Assembly (NCBI GenBank): GCA_965198285.1
Contig: OZ240251.1
Span: forward strand, 624,220-688,219
From: Chloroflexota bacterium
GTDB taxonomy: Bacteria > Chloroflexota > UBA11872
DNA: 64,000 nucleotides
Direction: 5' to 3'
Shown here: positions 27,171-50,656 of the stretch, in pieces
Numbering within the stretch: position 1 is the first letter of the stretch
How the letters are laid out: each line of letters starts with the position of its first letter
Program-made: the position numbers and the translations under genes
Notes under the pieces: model-generated
The model's database searches: none
The model's input: the letters and a program-made list of their open reading frames with translations, nothing else
Told to the model about the DNA's origin: nothing

Positions 27171-27923
27171 CTACTCAGGCGCGCTGGGTTCACGCGAAAC
27201 CGTCCCCGTCGCGCTGTCGCCAAAGACGCTCCGGACGACTTCGGCCTCAAGCTCGCCGATATAGTTCGCGTCCCTGTCAACCAGACGGCGTTCCTGTTCG
27301 TCCAGCAGGCGTGCGCCCGCACGCGTCACCAACCCCATGCTGATCGGAAAGCCCACGCCGTGGGACGACGTCCGAATGATGTCCAGCATTGCGCGATAGA
27401 TGAGCGCGCGAGTCAGGTCCATTTCTGTGTTAGGCAAGTCGTAGTGCGCCAGGCTCGCCTGTGCCAGGTAGGCGAACGCTCCCCCCGAACCGATTGCCGC
27501 AAAGTTGGCGTAGGTCTCCTCATCACGAGGGTTGTGCACGAAAGACTCCCCGTTCTCAGCGATCTGCAGAATCCACGACCGTCCAGCCGTATGGCCAGCA
27601 AAGAGCAATGCGCTTGCTGGTGGATTCGACCTTGGCAGTCCTGGCCATCTGGCTGATGCCGCCCTCTAAACTGGATTGACGACCTCCAAAGCCCTGAGTC
27701 GCAGGTCCTCAATCGGCACTCCGTCGGCGCCGGCCGGGAAGTGCTTCGCCAGTTCTTGCTCAATGAGTTGAGTGGTTCCCAGGGACCCGGACGAACCCCA
27801 GACAACCCGCTCACCCATCCGGCGAAGCTTCTCGCTCGTAAATCGGACGTCCCCAGCGGTTATCTGGCTGTCGGCCGCCACCACGACGCCACCCCTGCAC
27901 GCCGCAGCGACGATCAGGGTCAT
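27171..27923 (-). pseudogene. proteasome-type Ntn-hydrolase (HslV/Anbu-like, peptidase T1) interrupted by an in-frame TAG
   Basis: The N-terminal ORF reads MTLIVAAACRGGVVVAADSQITAGDVRF... with Thr2 as candidate nucleophile and ends at TAG (27668..27666). The same frame continues without a further stop into ...LLFAGHTAGRSWILQ...AAIGSGGAFAYL..., giving ~250 aa if read through. Confidence 0.55.
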
Positions 27924-31080: not shown

Positions 31081-31482
31081 CCCGAAGACGAGGGCCTGAC
31101 CTACACGCTGGAGGAAGCCACTCAGCTCCTGCCGGAAGTGCGTCGCATCGTTGGCCGCCTGCAGCGGGTCTGGATAGACGCCGGGTCCGAACGGCGCGGG
31201 TTCGAGGCCGCCCAGACCTCCAGCCGCCGCACCCCGGTCGAGGTCAGCCTGGCCCACCAGGCGCTGGTCGCCGCCCTCTGGGACGTGCAGCCGCTCGTCG
31301 CCTGGCTCCGGTCGCGCAACATCGAGCTGCGCGACCCCGCCACCGGCCTCATCGACTTCCCCTCACAGATCGAGGGCGAAGACGCCTTCCTCTGCTGGCG
31401 CCTCGGCGAAGACGCCATCGACTACTGGCACACCCGCGACGAAGGCTTCGACAACCGCAAACCCCTCCCGCCCGACGCCTGA
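31081..31482 (+). CDS. hypothetical protein (possibly DUF2203-like)
   Basis: 133 aa from the ATG; the longer ORF upstream overlaps the folC 3' end. Confidence 0.4.
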   Translation, partial: PEDEGLTYTLEEATQLLPEVRRIVGRLQRVWIDAGSERRGFEAAQTSSRRTPVEVSLAHQALVAALWDVQPLVAWLRSRNIELRDPATGLIDFPSQIEGEDAFLCWRLGEDAIDYWHTRDEGFDNRKPLPPDA

Positions 31483-31547
31483 GCGCCCGGTCGGCCTGCT
31501 GCCATTGCCCTCTCCTGGTGGAAAGGGCAGCGCGAGGGTCTTCCCGG

Positions 31548-31820
31548 TTAGCCGCCGGCCACCGACGGCACGATCGACACCTCATCGCCCGGGCCGACTT
31601 CGGTGGCGAAGCCTTCCCGGTAGCGGATGTCCTCGCCGTCCACGTAGATGTTGACGAAACGCCGCAGTTCCCCGTCTTCGTCCAGGATGCGCTCGGAGAA
31701 TCCGGGGTGCGTGGCGTTCAGCTTTGCCACCAGGTCAGCGACGTTGGTGGCGTCGATCTCCACACTGTTCTTTCCGTCCGTCAGGCTGCGGAGCGGGGTT
31801 GGAATTCGGACACGGGGCAT
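31548..31820 (-). CDS. MoaD/ThiS-family sulfur carrier protein (C-terminal GG)
   Basis: 90 aa ending ...VSIVPSVAGG; beta-grasp sulfur carrier (CysO/MetO-like). Confidence 0.8.
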   Translation of the reverse strand: MPRVRIPTPLRSLTDGKNSVEIDATNVADLVAKLNATHPGFSERILDEDGELRRFVNIYVDGEDIRYREGFATEVGPGDEVSIVPSVAGG

Positions 31821-31840
31821 GGGTGCGTCTCCTGCGCGAA

Positions 31841-33088
31841 TTAGGCCGGCGTCAGCACGCCGCGGTCGGCCAGCGTCTGCTCGAACGACGTAATGCTCGG
31901 TCTGATCTCAAAGCGGGCGTCCACTCGGCCGTCGATGGCCTCCTGCGTCTTGAGCCCGTTGCCGGTCACCAGCGCCACCGTCAGGTCGTCCCGACCGATC
32001 ACGCCGCGCTCGGCAAGCTTGGCCAGCACCGCAATTGTGACGCCGCCGGCGGTCTCGGCAAAAACGCCCTCGGTGGAGGCCAGCAGTTGCATCGCCGCCA
32101 CGATCTCGTCGTCGGTGACCGACTCGATCACGCCATCCACCGCCTGCGCCAGCTTCAACGAGTAGAAGCCGTCCGCCGGGTTGCCGATCGCCAGCGACTT
32201 GGCCACGGTGTCGGGACGCCGCACGGGCCGGTAGGTGGTCTGGCCGCGCGCAAAGGCCTCGGCCACCGGCGCGCAGCCATCCGCCTGGGCGCCGTGGATG
32301 CGGGTGGACTGGCTATCCAGCAGCCCCACGTCCACCAACTCCTTCATGGCCTTCCCCATCTTGGTGTAGAGCGAGCCGGACGCGATCGGCGCCACGATGT
32401 GATCGGGCGCCACCCAGCCAAGCTGTTCCACCGACTCGAAGGCCAGTGTCTTGGAGCCTTCGGCGTAGTACGGGCGGATGTTGATGTTGCAGAAAGCCCA
32501 GTTATAGAGGTCGGCGATTTCGCTGCACAGCCGGTTCAGCTCGTCGTAGGTGCCGTCCACGGCCACGATGGCGGCCCCGTAGACCGCCGCCCCGCGCACC
32601 TTGCCAATCTCCAGGTCGGCCGGCATGAACACGTAGGTGGGCATGCCATGCCGCGCCCCGGCGGCGGACGCCGCCCCGGCCAGGTTGCCGGTGGAGGCAC
32701 ACGCGAAGGTCTCGAACCCGAACTCGCGGGCCTTCGTGATCGCCACCGCCACCACCCGGTCCTTGAAGGAGTAGGTGGGGTTGACGGTGTCGTTCTTGAT
32801 GTAGAGGTTGGTCAGGCCCAGCCGGTCGCCCAGGTTGTCCGCGCGCTGCAGCGGCGTGAACCCAACCGGCCAGGTCTCGTCCCAGCCCCCCTCCACCGGC
32901 AGCAACTCGTGGTAGCGCCACAGCGTGGGCGGCCGGGCGGCAATGGCATCGCGCGAGATGGTCTCGCGGATGGCGGCGTAATCGAACTGCGCTTCCAGCG
33001 GCCCGAAATCGAACTCGCAGATGTGCGTGGCCAGCAGCGGATAGGCGCGGCTGCACTCGCGACAGCGAAGCGTCTGAGTCGTGGACAT
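31841..33088 (-). CDS. threonine synthase-like PLP enzyme (MetM/ThrC-like)
   Basis: N-terminal Zn-ribbon-like CRECS...HICEF, then ...YIKNDTVNPTYSFKDRVVAV (PLP Lys)...GNLAGAASAAGARHGMPTYVFMP.... Located downstream of a SAM-I riboswitch. Confidence 0.8.
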   Translation of the reverse strand: MSTTQTLRCRECSRAYPLLATHICEFDFGPLEAQFDYAAIRETISRDAIAARPPTLWRYHELLPVEGGWDETWPVGFTPLQRADNLGDRLGLTNLYIKNDTVNPTYSFKDRVVAVAITKAREFGFETFACASTGNLAGAASAAGARHGMPTYVFMPADLEIGKVRGAAVYGAAIVAVDGTYDELNRLCSEIADLYNWAFCNINIRPYYAEGSKTLAFESVEQLGWVAPDHIVAPIASGSLYTKMGKAMKELVDVGLLDSQSTRIHGAQADGCAPVAEAFARGQTTYRPVRRPDTVAKSLAIGNPADGFYSLKLAQAVDGVIESVTDDEIVAAMQLLASTEGVFAETAGGVTIAVLAKLAERGVIGRDDLTVALVTGNGLKTQEAIDGRVDARFEIRPSITSFEQTLADRGVLTPA

Positions 33089-33293
33089 GCGGATGATCCT
33101 TGGCAGAGGCGCCGACGGAGATGTCAGCGGATGGCGAATTCCCCTATTGCCGGGTGACCCGGCCGGCCCGCGTCATGCGCGGGCGCGGGCATCGCCATCA
33201 GCCGCCGAATAGCAAGGGACGATGTGTCCATCACTCCGTCACAACCCCTTGGCGCCGTGCGCCCCGCCCTGGGGCGCTGCTTCGCGCCGGTGA

Positions 33294-33412
33294 CCCTCTC
33301 ATCTTGCAGCACGCGCTGCCGGAATTGGCACCCTCTCGAGCGTTCGCCCGAAGGTTGCCCGGCTTCGTTGGGCCGACTCCCTCCACCAATCGTGATGAGA
33401 GGTATGTCACGT
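33294..33412 (-). promoter_or_regulatory. SAM-I (S-box) riboswitch
   Basis: Minus strand: CUCUCAUCACGAUUGGUGGAGGGAGUCGGCCCAACGAAGCCGGGCAACC...GGUGCCAAUUCCGGCAGCG...GCUGCAAGAUGAGAGG. This matches the SAM-I consensus helix by helix (P1 CUCUCAUC/GAUGAGAG, and GGUGCCAAUUCC) and lies ~200 nt upstream of the ThrC-like gene. Confidence 0.8.
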
Positions 33413-33863
33413 CAAACTTGGTGTCCCGCCAGCCTAGCACCCATACCTGCCACGCTGCGGGGGCGCGTCGGCCACATCGAGCCGTTCGCTTCCGCAAGCG
33501 GCCGGCCCCGTACGTCGATCGGCGCTTGTGACACTGCGCGACCCGCCCATCGGGGCGTGCTTCATCTGCAACCCCAGGCGCCACGTGCCCGACATCGCCA
33601 CCTTCCAGGCCCTCGGCTTCTACTGGTGCAACGTGACGGTGGCCGACGCCGCCTTCTTCGCCCGCATCACCCCCGGCCCCCCATCCGCCCCGCCCCGGCC
33701 CGCGGCGACTATCCCAACTGCCTCACCAGCTAGCTGTACTGCCTACACACCTGCGAGACACCCGCCAGTCGCGGAACCTCTAACGAGACCTGGAGGCGCC
33801 ACACACCAACGTCTCAACGGAAGTTTCGATGGCTCATGCTTCGGGATACCCTCAGCGGATGCG

Positions 33864-34613
33864 TCATTCGTTCGAGCTCCGCTGCGGAGCGGTGTCGTTG
33901 ATGGCGGCCGGGGTCGGGCCGGGCGTGGCGGCGCGCGTGGTCGGCACGATCCGCACGTCATCCAGCAGGCCATTGCGCACCGCCCACACCACCACTTCCT
34001 GCTTCGAGCCGACGCCCAGCTTGCGCTGGATGCCGTAGACGGCATTGCGGATGGACACTGGCTTCAGGCTGCGGACCTCCGCGATCTGGGTGTACGACAT
34101 CCCCTGGGCGAACGACGTGAGGATCTCCCGCTCCCGCGGCGTCAGGTTGGGCCCTCCGGTCATGGCCGCTGCCGATCCGCTCCGAATGGCCGCGAACACC
34201 CGCCGGAGGACGCTGGCGGGCACGCACGGCTCGCCCGCGGCCACGGCGCGGACCGCGGCCAGGAGCCGTTCCCCATCGAAGGCCTTCTGCAGGTAGCCCG
34301 TCGCGCCGGCGGCGACCGCGTCGATCACCGCGTCTTCCTCGGTTGAGGCCGTCAGCATGAGCACGCGCGTATGCGAGGCGGACGCCATGATCTCCCGACA
34401 CGCCTCCACGCCATCTTGGTGCGGCATCATCACGTCCATCACGACGACATCGGGGGCTAGCTCCGCGGCCGCCGTCACCGCTTCCGCCCCGTCTTTGGCC
34501 TCCCCGACGACTTCGAAAGCTCCGGACCCCTCCAGGATCAGCTTGAGGCCGTCCCGCACGACCGAATGGTCGTCAGCGAGCAAGACCCGGATGCGCGGGG
34601 GCGTGGCGGCCAC
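33864..34613 (-). CDS. LuxR/NarL-family response regulator
   Basis: ...VLLADDHSVVRDGL...VVVMDVMMP (receiver)...LTPREREILTSFAQGMSYTQIAEVRSLKPVSIRNAVYGIQRKLG (LuxR HTH). Confidence 0.85.
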   Translation of the reverse strand: MAATPPRIRVLLADDHSVVRDGLKLILEGSGAFEVVGEAKDGAEAVTAAAELAPDVVVMDVMMPHQDGVEACREIMASASHTRVLMLTASTEEDAVIDAVAAGATGYLQKAFDGERLLAAVRAVAAGEPCVPASVLRRVFAAIRSGSAAAMTGGPNLTPREREILTSFAQGMSYTQIAEVRSLKPVSIRNAVYGIQRKLGVGSKQEVVVWAVRNGLLDDVRIVPTTRAATPGPTPAAINDTAPQRSSNE

Positions 34614-34614
34614 G

Positions 34615-35832
34615 CTAGGCCTCCGTTCGGTGGCGCGCGAGGGGCATCACGCATGTCACGCTCGCCCCGCCGGTCGACCCTCGCGGTTCCACGCGCAGAC
34701 ATCCGCCCAGCCGCTCGGCGTCCGCCCGCATGTTGGCGAAGCCGTGGCCGCGGTCGGCGTAGTCGACGGGGAGACCCATGCCGTCGTCCGAGACCGACAA
34801 CCGGAGACGATCCTCGCCGAAGGCGAGTTCCACCAGCACCCGGCTCGCCTCCGCATGGCGAAACGCGTTGGTGAGGGCGTTGTGGGCCATGGCGAACAGC
34901 CGGTTCCTGGCCTCCACCGAGAGGGGTGGCTCCACCCCGTGCTGGGCCAGGTCCGCCTGGACCGATGTGATCTGGGTGAAGGTCGAGACGTGGGACTCCA
35001 GGGTCCTGCCCAGCCCCCGGCCGTCGAAGATCCGCCCCACGTCAATCGGGTGTCGCAGCTGCCAGATAGCCGTCTTCGACAGCTTGGCGGTCGCGTCCAG
35101 CCTGGTTTTCACCTCCGCGTTCGAGTCGCCGACCAGGCGCTGCACCTCGTCGATCCCCAGGCCGATCATGAACGCCGACTGCGCGGTCGTATCGTGAATG
35201 GCGTGGGAGAGTTCGATGCGCTCCCGCTGCAGCGCTCGCTCCCGCGCCACCGCCTCCATCCTCCTGATCCGCTCCACCCTGGAGATCAGATTGACGACAA
35301 CCACAACCAGGTACATCCCGGCAACCCGGATGAGCAGAATCTCTTCATCATTCCCTGAGACGTCCAACCCGGGCTCGACCGCGAGGCAGAGCGCGGTGTA
35401 GACGACCGCCGTCATCGTGACCCAGGCCAGCGCGAGCCGCACCGATCCGACGACCACCGCGAACATGGCCAGGCATGGGTAATACCCCACGAAGAAGGGG
35501 GTCTCGAACCCGCGGTGCGCCGCAACGCCGGCGCTGAGCAGCGCCAGGTCCAGGGCACTTGGCGCCAGCATCCACCGCCAGGACAGGGTCCCTTTCGTGG
35601 CGAGCCGATAGTGCAAGCATCCGTTGCTGGCGAGCAGCAGCAGGGCTAGGGCAACGTTCGGAGGATAGATCACCTCGGCGACGTTGAGTGGGTACAGCCA
35701 GGCGAACGTGGCCAGCGCCCAGACGAACCAGCGTGCCCAGACATACACCCTGGCCACGAGGCGCAATTCGCCCGGCTCCGGCAAGTCGAATCTGCGCAGG
35801 AAGGCTGGAAACCCGCTGGCCGCGGTGCTCAC
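34615..35832 (-). CDS. sensor histidine kinase (HisKA_3 / NarX-like), membrane-bound
   Basis: N-terminal transmembrane helices...LSHAIHDTTAQSAFMI (H-box)...HATPase_c region GDDGMGLP. Confidence 0.85.
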   Translation of the reverse strand: MSTAASGFPAFLRRFDLPEPGELRLVARVYVWARWFVWALATFAWLYPLNVAEVIYPPNVALALLLLASNGCLHYRLATKGTLSWRWMLAPSALDLALLSAGVAAHRGFETPFFVGYYPCLAMFAVVVGSVRLALAWVTMTAVVYTALCLAVEPGLDVSGNDEEILLIRVAGMYLVVVVVNLISRVERIRRMEAVARERALQRERIELSHAIHDTTAQSAFMIGLGIDEVQRLVGDSNAEVKTRLDATAKLSKTAIWQLRHPIDVGRIFDGRGLGRTLESHVSTFTQITSVQADLAQHGVEPPLSVEARNRLFAMAHNALTNAFRHAEASRVLVELAFGEDRLRLSVSDDGMGLPVDYADRGHGFANMRADAERLGGCLRVEPRGSTGGASVTCVMPLARHRTEA

Positions 35833-36403
35833 TCGATGCAGGACGTGTCTCCAATGGATTGGATTCCGGCGGATTGCCGCTGAAATGAGATATTTCCCTC
35901 TCCCCGGGGCGGTGGGCTCAGTCTCGAGTCGGTGACGGCCACCGCCGTGACACGGGCCATGTTGAGCCTGGACGAGGTGACGAACACCGCGAAGCAGGCC
36001 AACACCGGGTTGTACAGCAGGTGGATGCCGTGGTGGCCGAGACCGCCGCCCACCGCGGCGGCCCCGATACCACCGCCGTGTCCACCGCGGATTGCGCGAA
36101 GATCCAGCGCCAGGTGATCAGCCTTCCCGATGCCAGCCGGTAGTGCGGGCAGCCCGTGAACGCGACTAGGGCGAGAAACAGCAACGCATACGCGGCATAG
36201 GTGGCTGCCCCCCACGCCGGGCGGCAGACCAGTTGCACCAAGCACGTGGCGGCGAAGAACCAGTGGATCCGGACGAGCATGGTCGCCACGTGTCGGAGAC
36301 CGTCCGGGTCGGTCCGGTCGATCGTCCAGCCGCTGACCCGCACGGCGCCGGCGGCTGCTCTGATCAGCCGCAAGCCACGGGTCCTGTGGACCGACGCAAA
36401 CAT
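35829..36403 (-). pseudogene. frameshifted paralog of the sensor-kinase N-terminal membrane domain
   Basis: Two overlapping minus-strand ORFs in different frames (35918..36403 and 35829..36245) both resemble the transmembrane region of the adjacent kinase (...GCPHYRLASGRLITWRW... vs ...GCLHYRLATKGTLSWRW...). No kinase core follows. Confidence 0.4.
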
Positions 36404-36699
36404 TCGCTGCTCCCGAACGTCCCTGAGATGCTGCAGCGCCGCCCTAGGTCTAACGAGCGCACCATCGGGTTACGCCGACCAATCTATCCGCGTTTTGTGG
36501 TGGCCGCAAGATCAAATGTGCGCCACCTGACATAGCAAACATACCCTCCCCTGATATAGCAAAAGTACCTCCCGGAATGGGGCACATGCCCGTCGCAGGG
36601 CCGGATATGTGAGCTGACATGCCCGCCAGGCTGATCGACGTCAAATTAGCATGGTCGTGTGCTGATCCCGACGGGGCCGCGCCATGAGCTTCGGCGCCC

Positions 36700-36835
36700 G
36701 AGATAGGGCAAATGAACCCTGATGGATAGGGGCATATAAACCCTATGCACAGGTTCATATGCCCATGCTTATAGCAGCACTAGTATCCTCGATTAATGTG
36801 TTGTTTGACTCTTGTCGTTGGCATGGACTACATGG
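36700..36835. promoter_or_regulatory. AT-rich element upstream of giant gene 1, with TAGGG-N8-9-CCCTA palindromes and a conserved ATGTGTTGTT...GGCATG box
   Basis: TAGGGCAAATGAACCCTGA (36706-), TAGGGGCATATAAACCCTAT inside the inverted repeat GGGCATATAAACC/GGTTCATATGCCC (36729..36764), and ATGTGTTGTTTGACTCTTGTCGTTGGCATGGA (36797..36828). A homologous block lies upstream of giant gene 2. Confidence 0.5.
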
Positions 36836-37294
36836 CAACCTATCGTGAAGTCAATCTGGTCGGCTGGCCGCCGACTCTTTGGCGCCCAATCTTCGTCGCG
36901 AGAAGGATGACTTGTCCCAATCTATGAGGAGATTAATTCCTGGACGGAAACGCGACAGCGGTCACACCGGACACCCACGCCGCCGAAACGAGCGTGCCCG
37001 AGGCCGCCTTGTAGCGTCTTACCCCCCAGGGGTCGCCCTCTGCTCCAGCCCCCGTCCCCTCCAGCTCATACCGGCAGGCCCGATCCCAACCTATCGCCGC
37101 GGTCTCTCAGTGCGCTCCCGAAGCAACCGGAGTCCTCGAACGACGCCTTCCCGCGGGCTTCGCACGTCCCGCACTCACCCGAAACAGCCTTCAACCATGC
37201 AACGCCCTACGCCGCTGCGCGCCGCTCCTCTATCGGCTGACGCCCGCGGACCGGACGGGCTGCGTCCCACACCACCACACCAGCACAGGGAGGA

Positions 37295-40200
37295 ATGATG
37301 ATGACTGGCGCCGATAGACGACGATTTCCCATCATCATTGTCGCTCTGGCCGGCTTGGCGCTTGCCGTTGGGCTGTTCGCAACCCATGTCCCGCAGGCCC
37401 ACGCCCAGGGCGCCACCATAACCTCCCTGCTGTCCCGGCTGGACGTGGGAATTTCTGAGTCCGTTAATAACGGCTACCACACTCAGGCGGCAGGATACCG
37501 CCCGCCCCCTGCGACTAATCCAATTGGAACCCTGAGTCCCGCGGGATTCAACTACCCGGCGGGATTCGGCCCCTGGTACACGGTTGAGAAGCTTCTTCTG
37601 AGTCAGGAGGGACAAGCAAACGCTATCGCCCCGGGCATCCTTAGTTTTCACATACGCGGCACTGTGACTTCCGTTGCGAGTTCCGGCACGGAACGGGCGC
37701 GCGTTTTGCCAAAGGGTGCCGGCATCGAGCTTTACCTTGAGGGAGATGACTGGTCCAGAACCTATTCCCTGGACGACGCTACTACTAGAAGAGTTGGGAA
37801 CTGTCTCGACGAAGACGGAGATGATAGGGATTGCGAAGTTGGAGAGACTACCACGGAGGAATACGAGTGGGATGATGATGACAACCGACCTCCGTTGCTT
37901 GCCGACGGCGACAAGATCATCGTCCGCCTGACGTACTCGGCGCCGCGTGCGGCCAAGCCGGGGACGCCGACGGTTACGGCGCCGACGGGGAAGTCCGGGG
38001 CGCTGGTGGTGGAGTGGACCGCGCCCACGAACGACGATCCGAAGGTGCGCGGCTACGAGGTGCACGTGTCCCCTGCCGCCGGCGAGACGGAGGCCACCGG
38101 GGTGACCAGGACCACGGGCGGCTCCAACACGCGCCTGCCGGTGCTGCTGCTTGAGCCGGACACCGCCTACGACGTGAGAGTGCGGGCGCGCACATACTTT
38201 GCCTCGGGTCCCTGGTCGGAAACGGTGCGTGCCACGACCAATCCGCTGCAGGGAACGAACAATCCCTCAGTCACGCTGGACCTCGACGGCGTCACGAAAG
38301 TCAAGGTGGGAGACAAGTTGTACAAGCGGCTCAAGGTGACGGGGATGAACAACCTGCACGCCGGCGCGTTCCCGGACAGGTTCGAGGGCCATCGCCAGAT
38401 CCACAACGTGGAGTTCCGGGTGCTGGACAGGATCCATGACTCGTACGTGTACGAAGACCTCACGCACGGCGATGGAGAAGGCGCCTTCTACGCCGGCGCC
38501 CTGACCATCGGTGAGGACGGGGAGGTGTACCACAACTTCGGGTACGAGGTGATTGCCGAGGGCCGGGCCGAGGGCGAAAAAGGAGATGGAGCGCCGGAAT
38601 ACGGGCCGTTGTACCTCTGGCTGGAGAGCACGACGGGCGTTGTCCAGATCGGCAGCACAGCCAATTCGCGCGCAACGGCGCTGTGCGTGGAGATCGCCGA
38701 CGACTCGAACATGGTCCCGACCGACCGTACCTGCTCCACGGGCGGGTCGGCGGGCCACGCGGTGGACCGGCTGACGGGCCGCTTCGTGAACGTCCCCCAG
38801 TCCCACGACGGTGAGAGCGAGTTCACCGTGCGGCTGGCCTTCGTCGAGGACGTGGGCATAAGCCCCGAATCGCTGCGCGAGGACGCGCTCGCGGCGACCG
38901 GGGGCGCGGTCACCCGGGTGCAGCGGGTGGACGACCGCAGCGACCTGTTCGAGATCACGGTGGAGCCGGACTCCGACGAGGACGTGACGATCACGCTGTC
39001 GTCGAGTGGAGACTGCGGCGAATCCGGATCGATCTGCACCCAGGAGGAGGACCCCAGGAAGCTTTACAACAGCCCGACTGCGACGGTGGCGGGTCCCATC
39101 CTGACGGCGAGCTTCCAGGGCCTGCCGTCGCAGCATGACGGGGAGACGGCGTTCAGCTTCAGGATCGCGTTCAGCGACGAGATAGCGACCGAAGAGGAGG
39201 AGTTCCGGGACCACAGCGTGGAGGTGTGGGGCGGCGAGGTGACACGGGCCGAGCCGGTGGGCCAGCGGCGCGACCTCTGGGAAGTCGAGGTCGAGCCGGC
39301 CTCGGAGGACTCGGTGATGGTCTCGCTCAAGCTGACGCAGTCCTGCGCTGCCACGGGCGCGGTGTGCACGGCGGGCGGGCGGCTCCTGTCGGTGGTCCCC
39401 GCAACGATGGTGCCCGGCCCGGCGACCTGGCCGGTGCGGGTCACCGGCGAGGCGCAGGTGGGGAAGACCCTGACCGCGGACTCGTCGAACCTCTCCGAGC
39501 GGTACGGCGTGCAGGTCACCTCCATGACCTACCGGTGGCTGGCCGATGGCGCCCGCATACCGGGGGCCAACGCCCGAACCTACCAGCCGGACGATGACAA
39601 GCAGGGCAAGAGAATCAGCGTGATGGCGACCTACACCGACGACCGGGGCAACGAGGAGACGGTGATCAGCGCGCCCACCGAGCCGCTGGCGGCCAGGGAC
39701 CGCATCAGGCGGGCCACGGGCCTGCCGCTGATCAGCGGCAGGGCGCTGGTGGGGCATACGCTGACAGCGGACACGTCGCTCATCATCGACCCTAACGGCC
39801 TGGAGAATGCCGTCTTCTACTACTTCTGGGAGGCGGACGACGACAGCATCCCGGATGCGACCGACTCTACGTACACGCCGGTGGAAGCCGACGTGGGCAA
39901 GGAAATCACTTTCATAGTGGCTTGGGTTGACGACGCTGGCCACGGACAGAACATGACCAGCCAGCCGACGATGCCGGTGATGACGGCCGAGGCCGCGGCG
40001 GCGGTGGAGTTCCGCAAGAGTCTCAGGGTCGCGGCGAATGCCGACGGGTCGGTGACCCTGTACTGGAACGCGCCCGATGAGGATGTGACCGGTTACCGGA
40101 TATTGCGCCACCGCCATTCGCTGGGCGAGCTCGATCCGCTGGTGTACGTGGCGGACACGGGCAGCACGGCGACCGCCTACACCGACACCGGTATGGTTGC

Positions 40201-43200
40201 GGGCGTGCCGCACAACTACCGCGTACAGGCCATCAGGGACGGGGTGCTGGGCGAACGGACCATACAGATCAAAATCTTCCCGGTGAGGAAGGCAACCAAC
40301 AGCCCGGCCACCGGCGCGCCCGCCATCAGCGGAACGGCGCAGGTGGGAGAGACGCTGACGGCGGACATCTCCGGCATCGCCGACGAGGATGGGCTGGAGA
40401 ACGTGACCAAGAATTATCTGTGGGCGGCAATCGGCAGCAGCGGCAAAATCGGCGCCAAGTACGCCTACCAGTGGCTGGCCGACGGCGCGGAGAGCGGTAC
40501 GGGCCAACACCATGCAGGCTATGACAATACGACCTACACCCTGGCGGAAGACGACGAGGGCAAGGCCATCAGCGTGCGGGTGACTTTCGTTGACGACGGG
40601 GGCCACCAGGAGACGCTCACCAGCGCGGCAACGGACCCGGTGGCGGCGCTGCCCCAGCCCAACAGCCCGGCCACCGGCGCGCCCGCCATCACTGGAACGG
40701 CCCAGGTGGGCGAGACGCTGACGGTGGACACGTCGGGCATCACCGACGAGGACGGGCTGGACGATTCCAGCTTCACCGTCCAATGGATAACGGACGATTC
40801 AGTCATGGTCGCCAACGCCGCCAGGTCCTACACCCCGACCGACGGCGACCGGGGCAAGTCCGTCAAGGTGCGGGTGAGCTTCACCGACGACGCGGGCAAC
40901 CCGGAGACCCGCACCAGCGCACAGACGGCGACGGTGGAGGCTCGGGCCAACTCCCCTGCGACCGGCCTGCCAACCATCAGCGGGACCGCCCAGGTGGGTG
41001 AGACGCTGACGGCGGACACCACCGGCATCGCCGACGCGGACGGGCTCACCAACGTCGGCTACACCTACCAATGGCTTGCCGACGACGCTGAAATCGCCGG
41101 TGCTACCGGCTTGACCTACACCCTCGTAGACGCCGACCAGGGCAAGTCCGTCAAGGTCAGAGTGACCTTCACCGACGGTGGCGGCAACGAGGAGACCCTG
41201 ACCAGCGCGCCGACCGCCTCGGTGGAGGCAAACCCCAACAACCCGGCCACCGGAGCGCCGACCATCATCGGCACCGCCCAGGTGGGCGAGACGCTGACGG
41301 CGGACACGTCGGGGATTGCGGATGGGGACGGGCTTTCCAACGTGGTCTATAGCTACCAGTGGGTATCCAGTGACGGAACAACCGATACGGATATAGAGAA
41401 GGCGACCGCCTCGACCTACACCCTCGTAGACGCCGACCAGGGCAAGGCCATAAAGGTCAGAGTGACCTTCACCGACGGCGGCGGCAGCGAGGAGACCCTG
41501 ACCAGCGCGCCCACGGGTCCCGTGTTTAGCGACGGCCCGCCGGGAGTGCCCCGCAACCTCACCGCCACCGCCGGAAACAAGGAGGTAACCCTGTCCTGGG
41601 ACCCGCCCGCCGACAACGGCAACGCGCCCGCAACGGGATACCGCATCGAGTGGAGGATCGACGGCAAGGACTACGACAAGAACATTTGGGGCACAGCGCG
41701 AAGTACCACCTATACGACGAACGACCAGGCCAATCTGGCCAATGGAGTCAAGTACTTCTTCCGGGTAAGGGCCGGGAACGGCAGCGGCAACCGCCAGGGA
41801 CCATACGGCCCGGCCTCCGGGGAGGTGAGCGCCACTCCCACGTCCGGCTCGGCGGTGGACCTGGGCACGCCGGTGCTGTCGAACACGGAAACCCTGCATC
41901 ACGGCATGGTGAGGCTGGACTGGGAGGACATAGAGGACGCCGGTTGGTACGTGGTCCAGTACTACGACGTCAGAGGTGGGGAGTGGTTGGACCTGCCCGC
42001 CGAGGGAGTGGACGTCGCGTTCCACGGATCAAGCGCGGTGGTGAGCAACCTGCATGGGCTCTCGTGGCTGCGGGTTGGTGCGATGAGCTGTGCCGGAGCA
42101 TCGGAGTGGTCGCAAATCGAGCAGCTGTTCGGGACCAACGCATCGGACTGGGACGGCGTGCCTGTACCGGAGGTGGAAGCAGGCGACGAGATCGAACCAT
42201 GCCCCGTGGACCTGGGCACGCCGGTGCTGTCGAACACGGAAACCCTGCACCACGGCATGGTGCAGCTGGACTGGCAGGCCATAGAGGACGCCGGTTGGTA
42301 CGTGGTCCAGTACTACGACGTCAGAGGTGGGGAGTGGTTGGACCTGCCCGCCGAGGGAGTGGACATCGCGCTCCATGGATCAAGCGCGGTGGTGAGCAAC
42401 CTGCATGGGCTCTCGTGGCTGCGGGTTGGTGCGGCCAGCTGCGACGGGGCATCGGAGTGGTCGCAGATCGAGGAGTTGTACGGGACCAATGCATCGGACT
42501 GGGAGGGCGTGCCCGTGCCCGAGGTGGCGGAGGGCGACGAGATCGAGCCATGCTCAGAAGACGCGGACACATCTGACAACAGCCCGGCCACGGGCGCGCC
42601 CACCATCAGCGGGACTGCGCGGGTAGGTGAGGTGCTGGAAGTGGACACGTCGAGCATCGCCGACGCGGACGGGTTCACCAACGCTGCCTTCACTTACCAG
42701 TGGCTTGCCGACGACTCCGAAATCGCAGGCGCTACCGGCTCCACATACACCCTGACCGATAGCGAAGAAAGCAAGGCCATCAAGGTGGAGGTGTCCTTCA
42801 CCGACGATGCCGATAACGAGGAGACGCTTACCAGCGCAGCGACAGCGGTGGTGGCGGCCAAGCCGAACTCTCCTGCCACGGGAGCGCCCACCATCAGCGG
42901 CACGGTCCAAGTCGGAGAGACCCTGACGGCGAACACGTCGGGAGTCATCGACGCAGACGGGCTTAGCAACATCCAGTACGAGTACCAGTGGCTGGCCGAC
43001 GACGCCGACATATCGGGAGCGACCAACGCCACCTACACCCTGGCAGCAGCCGACGAGGGCAAGGTCATCAAGGTTCGGGTGAGTTTCACCGACGGCGCGG
43101 GCAACGAGGAGACGCTGACCAGCGCGGCCACGGACGCGGTGGCGGCAGAGCCCCAGACCAATTCTCCCGCCACCGGAGCGCCAACCATCACCGGCACGGT

Positions 43201-43756
43201 CCAGGTGGGGGAGACGCTGACCGCGAACACGTCGGGCATCGCCGACGCCGACGGGCTTAGCAACGTCCAGTACGAGTACCAGTGGCTGGCCAGCGACTCG
43301 GACATATCGGGAGCGACCAACGCCACCTACACCCTGGCAGCAGCCGACGAGGGCAAGGTCATCAAGGTTCGGGTGAGCTTCACCGACGATGCGGGCAATG
43401 AGGAGACGCTGACCAGCGCGGCAACGGGCGCGGTGGCAGCGGCGGAGCCATCGGAGCCTCCCGCCAAGCCCAGGGGCCTCGAAGCCACGGCGACCCACGG
43501 CCAGGTGATCCTTACCTGGGACGACCCCCAGGACGACAGCATCACCGGCTACGTGATCCTGCGCCGCGTGCGGGTGAACGATACCGGGGGCGACTTCGAT
43601 GTATTGGTCTCGGACACGGGCAGCGCCGCCGCCACCTACACCGACGACATGGTGGCGGCCGGCATTACCTACACCTACCGCATCAAGGCCATCAACGGGG
43701 CCGGAACGAGCGACCGTTCCCGCTGGTACCACATCGACACCCCCGCCGCGCCGTAA
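37295..43756 (+). CDS. giant secreted repeat protein (2153 aa): signal peptide, FN3 domains, two ~110-aa HDGE(T/S)xF repeats, ~9 Ig-like ~95-aa repeats, two ~110-aa DLGTPVLSNTETLHHG repeats, C-terminal FN3
   Basis: Good RBS (GGGAGGAA) before ATG 37295. Signal RRRFPIIIVALAGLALAVGLFATHVPQAHA. Repeats of NSPATGAPTISGTAQVGETLTADTSGIADADGL...YQWLADD...GKxIKVRVTFTDxxGNEETLTSA recur about every 285 nt from ~39400 to 43440. The protein ends ...RSRWYHIDTPAAP. Confidence 0.85.
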   Translation: MMMTGADRRRFPIIIVALAGLALAVGLFATHVPQAHAQGATITSLLSRLDVGISESVNNGYHTQAAGYRPPPATNPIGTLSPAGFNYPAGFGPWYTVEKLLLSQEGQANAIAPGILSFHIRGTVTSVASSGTERARVLPKGAGIELYLEGDDWSRTYSLDDATTRRVGNCLDEDGDDRDCEVGETTTEEYEWDDDDNRPPLLADGDKIIVRLTYSAPRAAKPGTPTVTAPTGKSGALVVEWTAPTNDDPKVRGYEVHVSPAAGETEATGVTRTTGGSNTRLPVLLLEPDTAYDVRVRARTYFASGPWSETVRATTNPLQGTNNPSVTLDLDGVTKVKVGDKLYKRLKVTGMNNLHAGAFPDRFEGHRQIHNVEFRVLDRIHDSYVYEDLTHGDGEGAFYAGALTIGEDGEVYHNFGYEVIAEGRAEGEKGDGAPEYGPLYLWLESTTGVVQIGSTANSRATALCVEIADDSNMVPTDRTCSTGGSAGHAVDRLTGRFVNVPQSHDGESEFTVRLAFVEDVGISPESLREDALAATGGAVTRVQRVDDRSDLFEITVEPDSDEDVTITLSSSGDCGESGSICTQEEDPRKLYNSPTATVAGPILTASFQGLPSQHDGETAFSFRIAFSDEIATEEEEFRDHSVEVWGGEVTRAEPVGQRRDLWEVEVEPASEDSVMVSLKLTQSCAATGAVCTAGGRLLSVVPATMVPGPATWPVRVTGEAQVGKTLTADSSNLSERYGVQVTSMTYRWLADGARIPGANARTYQPDDDKQGKRISVMATYTDDRGNEETVISAPTEPLAARDRIRRATGLPLISGRALVGHTLTADTSLIIDPNGLENAVFYYFWEADDDSIPDATDSTYTPVEADVGKEITFIVAWVDDAGHGQNMTSQPTMPVMTAEAAAAVEFRKSLRVAANADGSVTLYWNAPDEDVTGYRILRHRHSLGELDPLVYVADTGSTATAYTDTGMVAGVPHNYRVQAIRDGVLGERTIQIKIFPVRKATNSPATGAPAISGTAQVGETLTADISGIADEDGLENVTKNYLWAAIGSSGKIGAKYAYQWLADGAESGTGQHHAGYDNTTYTLAEDDEGKAISVRVTFVDDGGHQETLTSAATDPVAALPQPNSPATGAPAITGTAQVGETLTVDTSGITDEDGLDDSSFTVQWITDDSVMVANAARSYTPTDGDRGKSVKVRVSFTDDAGNPETRTSAQTATVEARANSPATGLPTISGTAQVGETLTADTTGIADADGLTNVGYTYQWLADDAEIAGATGLTYTLVDADQGKSVKVRVTFTDGGGNEETLTSAPTASVEANPNNPATGAPTIIGTAQVGETLTADTSGIADGDGLSNVVYSYQWVSSDGTTDTDIEKATASTYTLVDADQGKAIKVRVTFTDGGGSEETLTSAPTGPVFSDGPPGVPRNLTATAGNKEVTLSWDPPADNGNAPATGYRIEWRIDGKDYDKNIWGTARSTTYTTNDQANLANGVKYFFRVRAGNGSGNRQGPYGPASGEVSATPTSGSAVDLGTPVLSNTETLHHGMVRLDWEDIEDAGWYVVQYYDVRGGEWLDLPAEGVDVAFHGSSAVVSNLHGLSWLRVGAMSCAGASEWSQIEQLFGTNASDWDGVPVPEVEAGDEIEPCPVDLGTPVLSNTETLHHGMVQLDWQAIEDAGWYVVQYYDVRGGEWLDLPAEGVDIALHGSSAVVSNLHGLSWLRVGAASCDGASEWSQIEELYGTNASDWEGVPVPEVAEGDEIEPCSEDADTSDNSPATGAPTISGTARVGEVLEVDTSSIADADGFTNAAFTYQWLADDSEIAGATGSTYTLTDSEESKAIKVEVSFTDDADNEETLTSAATAVVAAKPNSPATGAPTISGTVQVGETLTANTSGVIDADGLSNIQYEYQWLADDADISGATNATYTLAAADEGKVIKVRVSFTDGAGNEETLTSAATDAVAAEPQTNSPATGAPTITGTVQVGETLTANTSGIADADGLSNVQYEYQWLASDSDISGATNATYTLAAADEGKVIKVRVSFTDDAGNEETLTSAATGAVAAAEPSEPPAKPRGLEATATHGQVILTWDDPQDDSITGYVILRRVRVNDTGGDFDVLVSDTGSAAATYTDDMVAAGITYTYRIKAINGAGTSDRSRWYHIDTPAAP

Positions 43757-44105
43757 GCGACCTCCGTCGCCGGCGGCAACGCGAACGACCAGGCTGAGCC
43801 AGGCGGGCAGGACGATCCCGCCGTCGCGCCCGGCCACGCCACGCCCGGCGGTTCCGGCAAGAGGGCGATCGGCTCCGAGGTCGGCGCCGACCAGCGCGCC
43901 AACGGCCCCGCGCAGGTGACCATCGTGGCGGACCAGAATGTGTTCACCGCGCAACTCGACAACGTGAGCTTCACGTTGACCCGCACGGGCAATACGGACG
44001 CGGCGCTGGACGGTCGCGGTCACGCTGACGCAGGACCTGGAACTGTTCACGCCTGAGTACCTTCCGTAGAGCGTGCAGTTGGAGGCGGATTCGTCTTCCC
44101 GCGGC
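43757..44105 (+). pseudogene. decayed C-terminal extension of giant gene 1, homologous to giant gene 2 residues after its 4th FN3
   Basis: Right after the TAA of gene 1 the same frame reads ATSVAGGNANDQAEPGGQDDPAVAPGHATPGGSGKRAIGSEVGADQRANGPAQVTIVADQNVFTAQLDNVSFTLTRTGNTDAAL.... This is ~90% nt identical to 45565..45895 of gene 2 (PAAP-Q-ATFTEANDQAEQSGQDDP...). The TAA corresponds to CAG in gene 2, and a 1-nt indel near 44010 then shifts the frame. Confidence 0.6.
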
Positions 44106-44318
44106 GCTCAGTGCGGCGCTAGGAGGATTCGGGCCAGCGGTGGGCCACATCAGCTCTCGCCGGCCGTACCACCGGGCACCGATCGTCAGTCAACGAAGCG
44201 TGCGGTCGGCACTGGCCGGCGCGCCCATGGATGTGCCGCATTGCTTCTCAACTGGCTCCGTGCGGCTTGTGCGCTGGCGCTAGTGCTGGGAGACACGACT
44301 CTTGGCATTCACGCATTT

Positions 44319-44453
44319 CGTCGTCCGCCATAGGGGCATCCGAACCGTGCGGAATAGGGCATTTGTACCCTATATCGAGATATAAATACTTATGCAAAGA
44401 GATATAAGTACCCTATTAGATGTGTTGTTAGTCGCTTGTTAGAGGCATGCAAT
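44319..44453. promoter_or_regulatory. AT-rich element upstream of giant gene 2, homologous to the element upstream of gene 1
   Basis: ATAGGGGCAT...ATAGGGCATTTGTACCCTAT (TAGGG-N8-CCCTA palindrome), direct repeats GATATAAATAC/GAGATATAAGTAC, and ATGTGTTGTTAGTCGCTTGTTAGAGGCATGCA (44420..44451). It lies ~105 nt before ATG 44558. Confidence 0.5.
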
Positions 44454-44557
44454 AAAAGGTAATCTGTTGTTCCAGCAGATTTCAGGCTCGTCTGCTGGCC
44501 GTCGACCGCTGGGCGCTTGGCCCATCGACATTCATCGGGCTGTCTGGTGGAGGAACC

Positions 44558-47500
44558 ATGCCCCGCAGCGATCGACGACGTTTCCTCATCCTGATTGCCG
44601 CCCTGGCCGCGCTGGCCCTGCTCGTCGCCCCGGCGCAGGCCCAGGAGGGCGCCGCGCCGGACAAGCCCACGGGGCTTGTGGCCACCGCCTGGCGCGACCA
44701 GGTGGTGCTGACCTGGGACGACCCGCAGGACGACAGCATCACGGGCTACGTGATCCTGCGCCGCAACCGCAAGACCACCGTCGAGGGCCAGTTCAGCGAG
44801 CTGGCGCCGGACACGGGCAGCGCCGCCACCACCTACACCGACGCCAGCGTGACGGCCAGGACGCCCTACACCTACCGCATCAAGGCCCTCAACGAGCACG
44901 GCGTCAGCGAGCGCTCCCGCTGGTTTCACATCGACACCCCGGCGGCCCCGGAGAGGGTGCAGGCTGCCAGACTGCCAGCCAAGCCCAGGAGCCTGACCGC
45001 CGAGGTCACCCACGCCTCGGTGACGCTGACCTGGCGGGACCCGCAGGACGATTCCATCACCGGCTACGTGATCCTGCGCCGCGACAAGGCCATCCACCAG
45101 GTGGGAACCTTCGAGACCGTGGCGTCGGACACTGGCTCGGCGGGTGCCACCTACACCGACGCCACGGTGCAGCCGGACAAGCAGTACGTGTATCGCATCA
45201 AGGCGATCAACGCCGCCGGGCTGAGCGAGATCTCCAGTTGGGTGCGGGCCTACACGCCCTCAGTGCCCCTACCCGCCAAGCCCACGGGCCTCACCGCCAC
45301 GCCGTCCCACGACCGGGTGGTGCTGACCTGGAACGACCCCAACGACGCCAGCATCACCGGCTACGTGATCCTGCGCCGCACTCCCGGGGTCGACCCGGAG
45401 GGCCAGTTCGACGAGCTGGTGGCGGACACGGGCACGGCCGCCACCACCTACACCGACGACACCGTGGCGGCGGAGACTCGCTACACCTACCGCATCAAGG
45501 CCATCAACGAGTACGGGGTCAGCGAGCGCTCACGCTGGTTCCACATCAACCCCCCCGCCGCGCCGCAGGCGACCTTCACCGAAGCTAACGACCAGGCTGA
45601 GCAAAGCGGGCAGGACGATCCCGCCGGCGCGCCCGGCGGTTCCGGCAAGAAGGCGATCGGCTCCGAGGTCGGCGCCGACCAGCGCGCCAACGGCCCCGCG
45701 CAGGTGACCATCGTGGCGGACCAGGATGTGTTCACCGCGCAGCTCGACAACGTGAGCTTCACGTTGACCCGCACGGGCAATACGGACGCGGCGCTGACGG
45801 TCTCGGTCACGCTGACGCAGGACCTGGAACTGTTCACGCCTGAGTACCTTCCGCGCAGCGTGCAGTTCGAGGCGGATTCCGACACCGCGCCGCTCATTGT
45901 CTATCCCGGCGCGGTGTCGGAAGTCCACGAGGTGACGCAAGTCACCACGCTCACGGCCACGGTGGCCACCGGAACGGGCTACACACCGGGCTCGCCGGCA
46001 TCGGCGAGCACGCGGATCCTGGTGATCGACCCGGCCGTCACGGTGCGGATCGAGGAGGCCACCTACAGGTTCGACGAACACGCCACGGGCGCCGCGACGG
46101 CCGTACACGTGGTCGCTCGCACCGCATCCGGAGTGCCGTCGCCGAATACGGCGGTCTTTGCTTCCCTCAACTTGAGAGACCGAACGGCCGTGGGCAGCGG
46201 GGTCGACTACCAACGCCTGTCGGAGGTGGTGTCGTTCGAGCCGTCGGATTTCACTGCGGACGGACAGGTGTTCACGGCCCGCAAGGCGGTGCAGCTGGCG
46301 CTCGTCGACGACACGATCGCAGAGATGGACGAGACCATCGAGGTGTTGCTGGAGTACGCCCCGGGGCCGGCGGGGGTGATCGCGCTCAGGTTGTCCGACG
46401 GCACGACGTGTCCCCAGAACAGATGCACCTCGACGGTCACCATTGCCGACAACGACACGCCGCGGGTAACGACGCCCACCGTCACATCCGTGGTGGTCGC
46501 GTCCGCGCCGCAATCGGGGAACACCTACCGCTGGGGCGAGACGATCCTATTCACGGTCACCTTCAGCGAGCCGGTGCGGGTCACCGGCCGGCCGGCGCTC
46601 GAGGTCGGGCTCGACAGTGCCGCCGGGGGCGCCGTGCAGGCTCGCTTCGCGGGCCTCACGGCGACCCAGCGGCCGACCGTCGGCACCTGGCCGGTCCCCG
46701 TCAGCCAACACGTGCATTTCGCCTACACGGTGCAGCCGTCCGACCGTGACGCCGACGGCATCCGCATCGGTGTCAACGCGCTGCGACTCGCCTCCGCGGA
46801 CCGGATCCGGAGCGGCGAGACCGGTGCCGCCGCGGAGCTCGCCCATGCCGCGCTCGGCCCGCGGACCGGCCACCGGGTCGACGGCCAGCCGGCGGCGCCG
46901 GTGGCGAGCGCCGGGATCGAGATCGTCGATACGAACGGCCTTCTGCTCGAGACGCTGGCGGACGGGTCGCGCCGCCTGTGGGTGCCGGAGGGCGGCTCGG
47001 CGCGCTACGGGCTCAAGCTCGATAGCCGGCCGGCGCACCGGGTGGTGGTGTCACACCACTACATGTACCAGGGCGATCCCGACCTCGCCGTGCCGCGCAA
47101 CTTCACAGTCGACCGGTCCATCGCGCCGGACGAGTGGAGAACCAAGACAGTCTGGATAAGCGTCCGGGCGGCGCAGGACGCCGATGCGGAGAACGGCCAG
47201 CGGGTCTTCGCCAACAACTCGATGAGCCGGGACCCGAACTATCACCACCTGGTGCTTCCCGACGTGATCGCGGTCGAGGCCGACGACGAGCCGGCCTGCA
47301 CGCTGAACCTCGGCGACCTGTGGTGCGGCGTAATCACGCCGGGGAAAGTGGCACTGCCTGGAGTGGGAGGCTTTAGTGGATTCACCGCCTATCTCGGCGG
47401 ACTGTCCGACGACACGGGCGACCAGAGCTTCACCTACGGAACGAACACGTACACGGTTACTCAAGTTATTAATGAGAGAGGAATTGGCGGCACCGTCCTT

Positions 47501-48433: not shown

Positions 48434-49948
<1,515 letters not shown>

Positions 49949-50128
49949 AGGGAATGCGTCGCTCGGTTTCGGCCGAGCGGCCACCCAGGTTGAGCGATCA
50001 CGCGGAAATGCCGTCGCATTGACGGCTCCCGCGCGCCAGACCAAAAAAATCCATCGAGTCGACAGGAATGGCTCAGCCTCACACTCACTCTTTCCCTGTC
50101 AAGGTCCTCCATGTGCCACCATGCACAC

Positions 50129-50581: not shown

Positions 50582-50656
<75 letters not shown>

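Follow-up and report, generated by a model that had tools for sequence, protein, structure and literature searches.

We analysed a 64,000-nt stretch of DNA from a Chloroflexota bacterium (assembly GCA_965198285.1, contig OZ240251.1, positions 624,220–688,219; hereafter the window). Its minus strand carries a riboswitch of the SAM-I class, which responds to S-adenosylmethionine (SAM), followed by two genes. The first encodes a homologue of threonine synthase (ThrC) dependent on pyridoxal 5′-phosphate (PLP), and the second a small sulfur carrier of the ThiS/MoaD type. In our estimation, this operon serves MetM/MetO-type methionine biosynthesis under SAM feedback, with a probability of roughly 0.8. 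The label "threonine synthase", which a generic model would give to the enzyme, is very probably a misannotation, because the clade of the protein, its linkage to the carrier, its regulation, the co-occurrence of ThrC, and the substitutions in its sequence all match the MetM/MetO route. An earlier reading of the same DNA (the original prediction) had suggested such a mislabelled methionine enzyme, and the suggestion is supported by the clade, the carrier linkage, the ThiF and JAB neighbours, the SAM-I and T-box leaders, and the ThrC paralogues described below. The MetM/MetO pathway itself has already been described (Streptomyces, 2024); what is new here is a member from marine Chloroflexota.

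An Rfam scan of the whole window recognized a single riboswitch, a SAM-I (S-box) aptamer with helices P1–P4 at positions 33401–33296 of the minus strand. The match to RF00162 extends over the full model (positions 1–108) and scores 77.1 bits (gathering threshold 44.4; E = 2e-16). Within 33050–33520, SAM-I was the sole Rfam family at E ≤ 1. The original prediction had placed the element at 33412–33294, which turned out to be right within about 10 nt, and the covariance model scores the region far over the threshold. The aptamer lies 207 nt from the start of the PLP enzyme gene on the same strand.

To this we added a covariance model of our own, which was seeded by the window aptamer, refined with its matches, and run on all 82 sources. 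It gave the window aptamer 92.6 bits. The helices are additionally supported by compensatory changes in 29 homologous leaders, where 94% of the pair cells are canonical and 23 of the 30 pairs vary on both sides, although the alignment was fitted to the model and these counts therefore lean in its favour. None of 500 shuffles reached the observed covariation values, and slid controls were paired at 40–46%.

The gene downstream of the aptamer (31841–33088, minus strand) encodes a 415-aa protein, and a Shine-Dalgarno (SD)-like AAGGA (33097–33101, minus strand) is readable 8 nt 5′ of its start. The protein belongs to the PLP enzymes of fold type II (Pfam PALP, 231.8 bits), so the threonine-synthase-fold gene that had been expected here is indeed present. 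The long-ThrC model NF006050 gives 278.7 bits, under its cut-off of 303, and the cysteate synthase model TIGR03844 matches weakly, with 73.6 bits against a cut-off of 324.9. The best solved relatives are genuine threonine synthases, namely 2ZSJ (E = 4.7e-57), 6CGQ, 1UIM, and 2D1F, but these align only from residue 52–58 on, and the approximately 55 N-terminal residues form an extension. Alignment with the SFKDRG segment of the Aquifex aeolicus and Bacillus subtilis enzymes points to Lys109 of the SFKDR motif (codon 32762–32764, minus strand) as the predicted PLP lysine. We take it to be the Schiff-base lysine typical of fold-type II enzymes.

The N-terminal extension carries a zinc-ribbon-like motif at residues 9–27 (C9-x2-C12 ... 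H22-x-C24-x2-D27; 33008–33064, minus strand), which was recognized in the family alignment. The zinc ribbon announced by the original prediction thus stands as far as C9, C12, H22, and C24 are concerned, which are invariant in the family. It departs from expectation at the fourth position, where the usual Cys27 of the CxxC...CxxC pattern is replaced by Asp27 in the window protein and its nearest relatives. Judging from its conservation, the invariant His22 could be a zinc ligand. The ribbon has no diagnostic value, since it is shared by cysteate synthase and the long forms of ThrC.

For comparison, we used a sample of 80 loci, each from another species, that encode relatives of the window enzyme (individual loci are denoted by L numbers). 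The sample covers Chloroflexota, Nitrospirota, Verrucomicrobiota, Actinomycetota, Cyanobacteria, Aquificota, and others. In phmmer searches with the window protein, clade members scored at least 432 bits and any other ThrC-like protein from the same loci and annotated genomes at most 216 bits. Members of the clade share at least 48.7% identity with one another, whereas no protein outside it, the solved A. aeolicus and B. subtilis enzymes among them, exceeds 42%. A neighbour-joining tree was built from these two enzymes, eight paralogues of about 352–375 aa, three long ThrC proteins, and a sample of the clade. In this tree the clade is monophyletic with a bootstrap of 100/100 and stands apart from canonical ThrC. 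Like the other computational checks that the original prediction had proposed, the placement against bona fide ThrC came out in its favour. All named database entries of the relatives read "threonine synthase", but these names carry no weight, because the generic thrC model would yield them.

The nearest proteins (96% and 85–89% identity) were found in metagenome assemblies of Chloroflexota, several of which derive from TARA ocean sampling. The gene pair and its downstream neighbours (DUF2203, FolC-like, and others) are kept in relatives at 96%, 87%, and 77% identity. At 79% identity (L084), the pair is kept and the downstream genes differ. Cyanobacterial members (Pseudanabaena, Synechococcales), 55–56% identical to the window protein, also fall within the clade.

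Several genomes encode a clade member together with a canonical ThrC. The short paralogues of L006, L045, L053, and L088 score 306–330 bits with TIGR00260, and in the first three loci the canonical short form lies in the same locus as the clade gene. The 11.85-Mb record of Nonomuraea gerenzanensis contains a clade member and, separately, a canonical ThrC (L088). PALP paralogues of about 355–375 aa that group with canonical ThrC in the tree are also found at L041, L051, L054, and L063; these were called canonical by size and tree position only. As a separate observation, the L084/L085 locus encodes a third, divergent ThrC-like PALP protein of 378 aa (9567–10703, minus strand), which is convergent to the carrier gene and falls under all thrC cut-offs.

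The clade also differs from canonical ThrC in its catalytic sequence. It keeps the core and the SFKDR motif with its lysine, yet at 27 alignment positions each group has a fixed residue of its own. STGNTS is replaced by STGNLA (L136, A137), NSVNPYRxEGQ by NINIRPYYAEGS (N203, R205, Y208, S212), with the NSVNPYR segment becoming NINIRPYY, and the glycine-rich PLP-phosphate loop GNAGN by ASGSL. Further replacements are TIATA by TxAKS, SW by DG, and GLKD by GLKT. A236–G238, K243, K297/S298, D306/G307, and T381 belong to the residues fixed in the clade, which also shares an 8-residue insertion. When tested for the canonical residues (STGNTS, NSVNPYRxEGQ, GNAGN, TIATA, SW, GLKD), the window protein fails.

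In ThrC of Thermus thermophilus, the bound phosphate directs the addition of water to C-β, and the STGNTS and NSVNPYR segments presumably supply the Thr, Asn, Ser, and Arg that bind the phosphate of substrate or product. If these roles hold, the clade-specific changes sit exactly where a switch from β-water to γ-sulfur chemistry would be expected.

The second gene of the operon (31548–31820, minus strand) encodes a MetO/CysO-type sulfur carrier of 90 aa with a ThiS/MoaD β-grasp fold, separated from the enzyme gene by 20 nt on the same strand and preceded by AGGAG 5′ of its ATG. It matches Pfam ThiS with 54.4 bits as well as the NCBIfam models SAMP1 and moaD_arch. Its best solved relatives include 4N6E_B of the ThiS/MoaD family and, as the best, Mycobacterium tuberculosis CysO (3DWG_C, E = 3.7e-19), to which it aligns through the terminal Gly-Gly (GG). 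The sequence ends in ...PSVAGG directly before the stop (Gly-Gly codons 31556–31551), in line with the expected GG-terminated MoaD/ThiS carrier.

This arrangement is widespread. In about 64 of the 80 loci, the carrier gene directly follows the enzyme gene in the same orientation, often with a 4-nt overlap. Of 74 carriers, 36 end exactly at GG, the rest having 1–12 extra residues. Judging by their sequences, the latter would need trimming by a JAMM protease; the window carrier ends at GG, so C-terminal trimming is not needed.

We clustered all neighbouring open reading frames (ORFs) of the related loci and annotated the recurrent clusters. ThiF-family E1 (activating enzyme) genes were present in 26 of 81 loci and Prok-JAB (JAMM) protease genes in 17. 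The original prediction had proposed to look elsewhere for a ThiF/MoeZ-type activating enzyme and a JAMM protease. In these related loci they do accompany the orthologue, but neither is found among the called genes of the window. In two Chloroflexota genomes, fusions lie near the ThrC-like gene: a 416-aa ThiS-ThiF fusion by Pfam, whose ThiS domain ends in GG (L055, 11764–13014), and a 372-aa ORF matching both the carrier and the ThiF clusters, an apparent carrier-ThiF fusion (L007, 11701–12819). CysK/CysM-like genes occur in about 20 loci and aspartokinase in 7.

The survey also revealed that 52 of the 80 loci encode a NIL-domain protein of about 80 aa beside the ThrC-like and carrier genes (e.g., L019, 7273–7515; L003, 7494–7733). 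In L068 (7275–7790) and L073, the domain is fused to the carrier. NIL domains have a link to methionine: MetN contains one, as does the NIL-ferredoxin that takes part in the archaeal route to homocysteine. Neither the window nor its close relatives have the gene. These approximately 80-aa ORFs were also considered as a second ThiS, a candidate that was rejected when annotation identified them as NIL-domain proteins.

Regulation of the clade genes is of the methionine type. Our covariance model detected a SAM-I aptamer directly 5′ of the clade gene in 24 of the 80 loci as well as in L001, and it had practically no hits in other places. The 24 loci span four phyla (Chloroflexota, Verrucomicrobiota, Actinomycetota, and a deltaproteobacterium). 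Aptamers were also found in L082/L083 and L086, and that of Nonomuraea scores 68.7 bits with Rfam. In one Actinobacteria metagenome-assembled genome (L017, 5664–5918), the place of the SAM riboswitch is taken by a T-box leader, which scores 102.2 bits and presents a methionine codon in its specifier loop (GAA-C-AUG-A). It controls an operon made up of the ThrC-like and carrier genes, thiF, and a cysK-like gene. The regulators found among the clade loci were all SAM-I aptamers or the T-box with an AUG specifier, and no threonine-type regulator was seen among them. Eleven further loci without SAM-I showed no other riboswitch.

The closest known counterpart is the system of Streptomyces albulus (Hasebe et al. 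2024, via PMC12172450 and 10.1101/2024.10.14.618325). As far as these accounts describe it, O-phosphohomoserine is converted there to homocysteine with the thiocarboxylate of MetO, MetM being the ThrC homologue, MetO the carrier, and MoeZ and Mec accessory proteins. An upstream SAM riboswitch is reported for S. albulus metM (PMC12172450). The GapMind 2026 preprint (10.1101/2024.10.14.618325) lists the steps of the pathway and remarks that MetM "is often misannotated" as threonine synthase. B. subtilis ThrC is 33% identical to MetM according to a further preprint; for the homologue of the cyanobacterium Microcystis aeruginosa, which adjoins a MetO-like gene, the reported value is 51.6% (PMC12172450).

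As described in these sources, the S. albulus system resembles that of the window in having a ThrC-homologous PLP enzyme beside a ThiS/MoaD carrier, an upstream SAM riboswitch, and a "threonine synthase" label. The window differs in its origin from Chloroflexota with marine metagenomes as closest relatives, and in having no MoeZ or Mec gene nearby. Its carrier ends at GG, the fourth Cys of the zinc ribbon is Asp, and the leader is long, terminator-less, and equipped with an extra conserved element. No Streptomyces was among the 80 sampled loci, and homologue searches seeded with Acidimicrobiia and Nonomuraea proteins gave close relatives only. A plasmid search returned Nonomuraea alone. The N. 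gerenzanensis locus has the same order of SAM-I aptamer, ThrC-like gene (52% identity to the window protein), and a 91-aa ORF that corresponds to the carrier by position only.

Other thiocarboxylate systems are more distant. In CysM/CysO, as would also be the case in the window, the sulfur for a fold-type II PLP enzyme is supplied by the carrier thiocarboxylate, and the substrate is an O-phospho amino acid. The window carrier is clearly homologous to CysO of the M. tuberculosis CysM/CysO/Mec+ system (3DWG), whereas the PLP enzyme is a homologue of ThrC rather than CysK/CysM, is regulated by SAM, and is expected to use O-phosphohomoserine and to form homocysteine. The HcyS/MetY/HcyF/HcyD system of Wolinella succinogenes, which Krishnamoorthy and Begley are said to have described in 2011, reportedly relies on a protein thiocarboxylate for homocysteine synthesis and includes an E1-like activator as well as a JAMM hydrolase. 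It is said to use the fold-type I enzyme MetY and O-acetylhomoserine, unlike the ThrC-fold enzyme of the window. With canonical ThrC (2ZSJ, 6CGQ, 1UIM, 2D1F), the window protein shares the fold, the SFKDR motif, probably the substrate, and 39% identity over the catalytic core, and it differs in the approximately 55 extra N-terminal residues, the clade-wide replacements, the regulation, and the neighbourhood. Finally, the "distinctive-lineage ThrC" of Microcystis aeruginosa (PMC12172450) has an adjoining MetO-like gene, and cyanobacterial members belong to the clade of the window enzyme; it differs in having no SAM riboswitch and in being described as a moonlighting threonine synthase/deaminase for which no methionine role was shown in vivo.

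Several observations weigh against a methionine role. The 415-aa protein passes the NCBI thrC equivalog TIGR00260 with 251.9 bits (cut-off 167.1). The main dissent in the literature concerns the Microcystis homologue, which was reported to act weakly as a threonine synthase and as a threonine deaminase in vitro and not to raise methionine levels in vivo (PMC12172450). The likeness of the window enzyme to S. albulus MetM is indirect, being drawn from its 52% identity to the Nonomuraea protein of the same architecture and from the 51.6% identity to MetM reported for cyanobacterial clade members. Among the called genes of the 64-kb window there is no ThiF/MoeZ, rhodanese, or JAMM gene. Additionally, scans and folding yielded neither a terminator nor a convincing SD-sequestering helix for the window riboswitch.

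The TIGR00260 score and the cyanobacterial activities would fit an enzyme that is a genuine threonine synthase, or a bifunctional synthase/deaminase, with the riboswitch balancing the branch point of the aspartate family and the MoaD-like gene as a mere passenger. The same holds for the solved structures, the closest of which are ThrC, and for the PLP lysine and the many core residues held in common. Nevertheless, we regard this explanation as unlikely. The clade is separated with full bootstrap and has replaced residues that are invariant in ThrC, canonical ThrC paralogues exist at the same loci or in the same genome, and the regulators are of the methionine type. A passenger would also hardly agree with a carrier linked to the enzyme in about 64 of 80 species, with ThiF, JAB, and NIL proteins as frequent neighbours.

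If the pair does handle sulfur, its product could be another compound, such as cysteine from O-phosphoserine or a thio-amino acid for a cofactor or natural product. CysO, a protein of cysteine synthesis, is with 4N6E_B among the best solved relatives of the carrier, CysK/M-like genes lie at the locus in about 20 relatives, and cysteate synthase is a ThrC homologue too. This seems quite improbable to us, since SAM-I and the Met-specific T-box indicate methionine rather than cysteine, and the CysK/M genes occur besides the ThrC-like gene, not instead of it. The cysteate synthase score is far under its cut-off, the NIL domains are methionine-associated, and the Streptomyces system of the same architecture, as summarised in the sources above, yields homocysteine. 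Alternatively, the enzyme might make homocysteine from free sulfide, the carrier being dispensable or engaged in molybdopterin synthesis or tRNA thiolation. The lack of E1 and JAMM genes in the window and the matches of the carrier to MoaD and SAMP1 models are consistent with this idea, which we nonetheless find very unlikely in view of the tight linkage of the carrier across phyla, often with 4-nt overlaps, the adjoining ThiF and JAB genes of many relatives, and the carrier-ThiF fusions of some.

The MetM/MetO-type reading suggests the following course of events. Judging from the homology of the carrier to CysO, HcyS, and MetO, a ThiF/MoeZ-type E1 encoded outside the window would adenylate it, leading to a thiocarboxylate at its C-terminus. 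The PLP enzyme would bind O-phospho-L-homoserine and eliminate the phosphate as ThrC does. The carrier thiocarboxylate would then attack C-γ, in place of the water that adds to C-β to give threonine. Homocysteine would be released, possibly via a carrier-homocysteine adduct cut by a JAMM hydrolase, and then methylated to methionine. When SAM is abundant, it would bind the aptamer and switch expression off, as is expected from the family of the riboswitch.

How the riboswitch acts on expression is less obvious, and we therefore turn to the leader. A putative extended −10 promoter element, TGCTAGGCT, was read from the sequence at 33431–33439 (minus strand). The TGCTAGGCT / TGCTATGCT element is kept upstream of the leaders of L001, L084, and L086, and a TTGACA precedes it by about 17 nt in L026 and L148. 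Consensus scans of 31300–33900 called no promoter and found no terminator, so it is conservation that suggests the promoter in the window. With this putative start, the leader would be about 335 nt long.

Directly after P1, folding predicts a GC-rich nested stem-loop (33251–33290, minus strand), for which L082 has compensatory changes. It sits at the terminator position of related S-box leaders, has no U tract, and is directly followed on its 3′ side by an SD-like AAGGGG. Canonical intrinsic terminators lie 30–100 nt past the aptamer in 17 of 28 homologous SAM-I leaders. Spacers of about 210 nt without a terminator are found in the window, L001, L082, and L086. In L029 and L035 (Acidimicrobiales metagenome-assembled genomes) and in Nonomuraea (L087), the aptamer is only 8–25 nt from the start, which implies translational control; the distance is 63 nt in L077. 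Folding of the window leader in its free form, with the aptamer enforced, or with P1 blocked gave no clear difference in the accessibility of the SD and AUG. A manual search for an anti-SD complementary to both the 3′ strand of P1 and the SD gave 5-bp matches only, and the candidate was rejected. In the window lineage, the read-out apparently does not rely on a canonical intrinsic terminator and is most likely translational or Rho-dependent. It may also pass through a second leader element, which comprises a Met-Ala-Met-Pro upstream ORF (uORF) and a hairpin.

The candidate uORF spans 33124–33234 (minus strand), starting at GUG 33234 or AUG 33231 and ending at UGA 33126–33124. It includes the conserved AUG-GCG-AUG-CCC (Met-Ala-Met-Pro; 33198–33187), and 3 nt past the AUGCC motif stands a hairpin with covarying arms, GCCCGCG-CAUGA-CGCGGGC (33166–33184), both on the minus strand. 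All close relatives keep the block CUGAUGGCGAUGCC (33201–33188), followed after 3 nt by the hairpin (33184–33166). In general form, the motif reads AUG-RYN-AUGCC followed by a hairpin with covarying arms, and it lies 86–114 nt 5′ of the ThrC-like start in the window, L001, L082, L084, L086, L026, L012, and L058. Motif and hairpin are also present in three metagenome contigs (L107, L126, L148). The arms change to GCCCAC/GUGGGC in L082, GCCCCGAG/CUCGGGGC in L026 and L148, GCCCC/GGGGC in L012, and GGCCUG/CAGGCC in L058.

The SAM-I aptamer is not present in the motif carriers L084, L026, L058, L107, L126, and L148. The motif is therefore not simply part of the riboswitch platform. In L107 and L126, a sigma-70 promoter is followed by the motif and then by a strong intrinsic terminator just before the SD. 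The motif can be read as a short uORF of 6–36 codons, in which Met-(Ala/Ile)-Met-Pro are the sole conserved residues. In most of the leaders with the motif, the in-frame uORF starts have SD-like sequences, with good SDs in L084, L012, and L058. The Pro codon is CCC, CCU, or CCG, with the variation confined to its third base.

The motif may alternatively pair with the translation-initiation region: L026 offers 13 bp for this, and 8–9 bp are possible in L107, L126, and L148. Its partner in the window is UCGCCAUC, which lies about 40 nt 5′ of the AUG and gives a helix of 8 bp. RNAalifold of five close leaders gave mostly alignment noise and supports only the small hairpin and part of a long-range helix. 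There was no Rfam family for the motif in the window leader at E ≤ 1, nor in L084, which is devoid of the aptamer. The window has a single copy of the motif. A metagenome scan with TGATGGCGATGCCNNNGCCC returned, among the matches listed, 117 of 120 chance matches within coding regions and 3 true copies, each 5′ of a ThrC-like gene. There is thus no evidence for a wider methionine regulon of the motif, because the true copies listed all precede ThrC-like genes.

These features of the leader sequence tentatively suggest a regulator with two inputs, though we hold this to be doubtful: the SAM-I aptamer and a new methionine-responsive element, a short translated uORF followed after 3 nt by the covarying hairpin. 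Ribosomes would pause at the Met codons of the uORF and so report the supply of Met-tRNA, much as leader peptides do in attenuation. The uORF element would act alone in the relatives without a riboswitch (L107, L126, L026, L084, L058). In the window lineage, the SAM-I platform may govern the ribosome-binding site of the uORF, the AAGGGG directly 3′ of the post-aptamer hairpin. Alternatively, the element may function as RNA only and not as a Met-codon-sensing leader peptide.

Apart from the operon, some other features of the window deserve a mention. On the plus strand, a 16S rRNA gene is followed after 190 nt by RNase P RNA and a tRNA rather than by 23S rRNA (48426–50653), and L001, whose relative of the window enzyme is 96% identical, has the same order. 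This looks like an unlinked rRNA gene, possibly co-transcribed with RNase P RNA. In L001, the 16S gene is directly and divergently upstream of the riboswitch. Compared with it, the window has about 14.6 kb of extra DNA between the riboswitch and the 16S gene (approximately 33800–48400), which holds a LuxR-type response regulator, a histidine kinase, a 2153-aa tandem-repeat protein, and a 1044-aa ORF. The extra DNA is a strain-specific island or rearrangement.

On the other side of the operon (27171–27923, minus strand), a proteasome-like gene is split into ORFs of 145 and 85 aa, where L001 has a single gene of 250 aa; the split could reflect a frameshift, a pseudogene, or an error of assembly. 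The 64-kb window also contains three DUF3179 paralogues (5182–6642, 6501–7967, and 53897–55045), the first two of which overlap as called.

Within this system, the second leader element is the only part that is possibly new biology. The MetM/MetO-type reading of the operon itself bears on thousands of clade proteins that are labelled "threonine synthase" in Chloroflexota, Nitrospirota, Verrucomicrobiota, Actinomycetota, Cyanobacteria, and Aquificota. It removes a false second thrC from the annotation, and SAM-I aptamers in four phyla, the Met T-box, and the clade-specific residues offer independent and portable criteria for telling MetM from ThrC. If the reading is right, it closes apparent gaps in the methionine pathway of abundant uncultured lineages from marine waters and groundwater.

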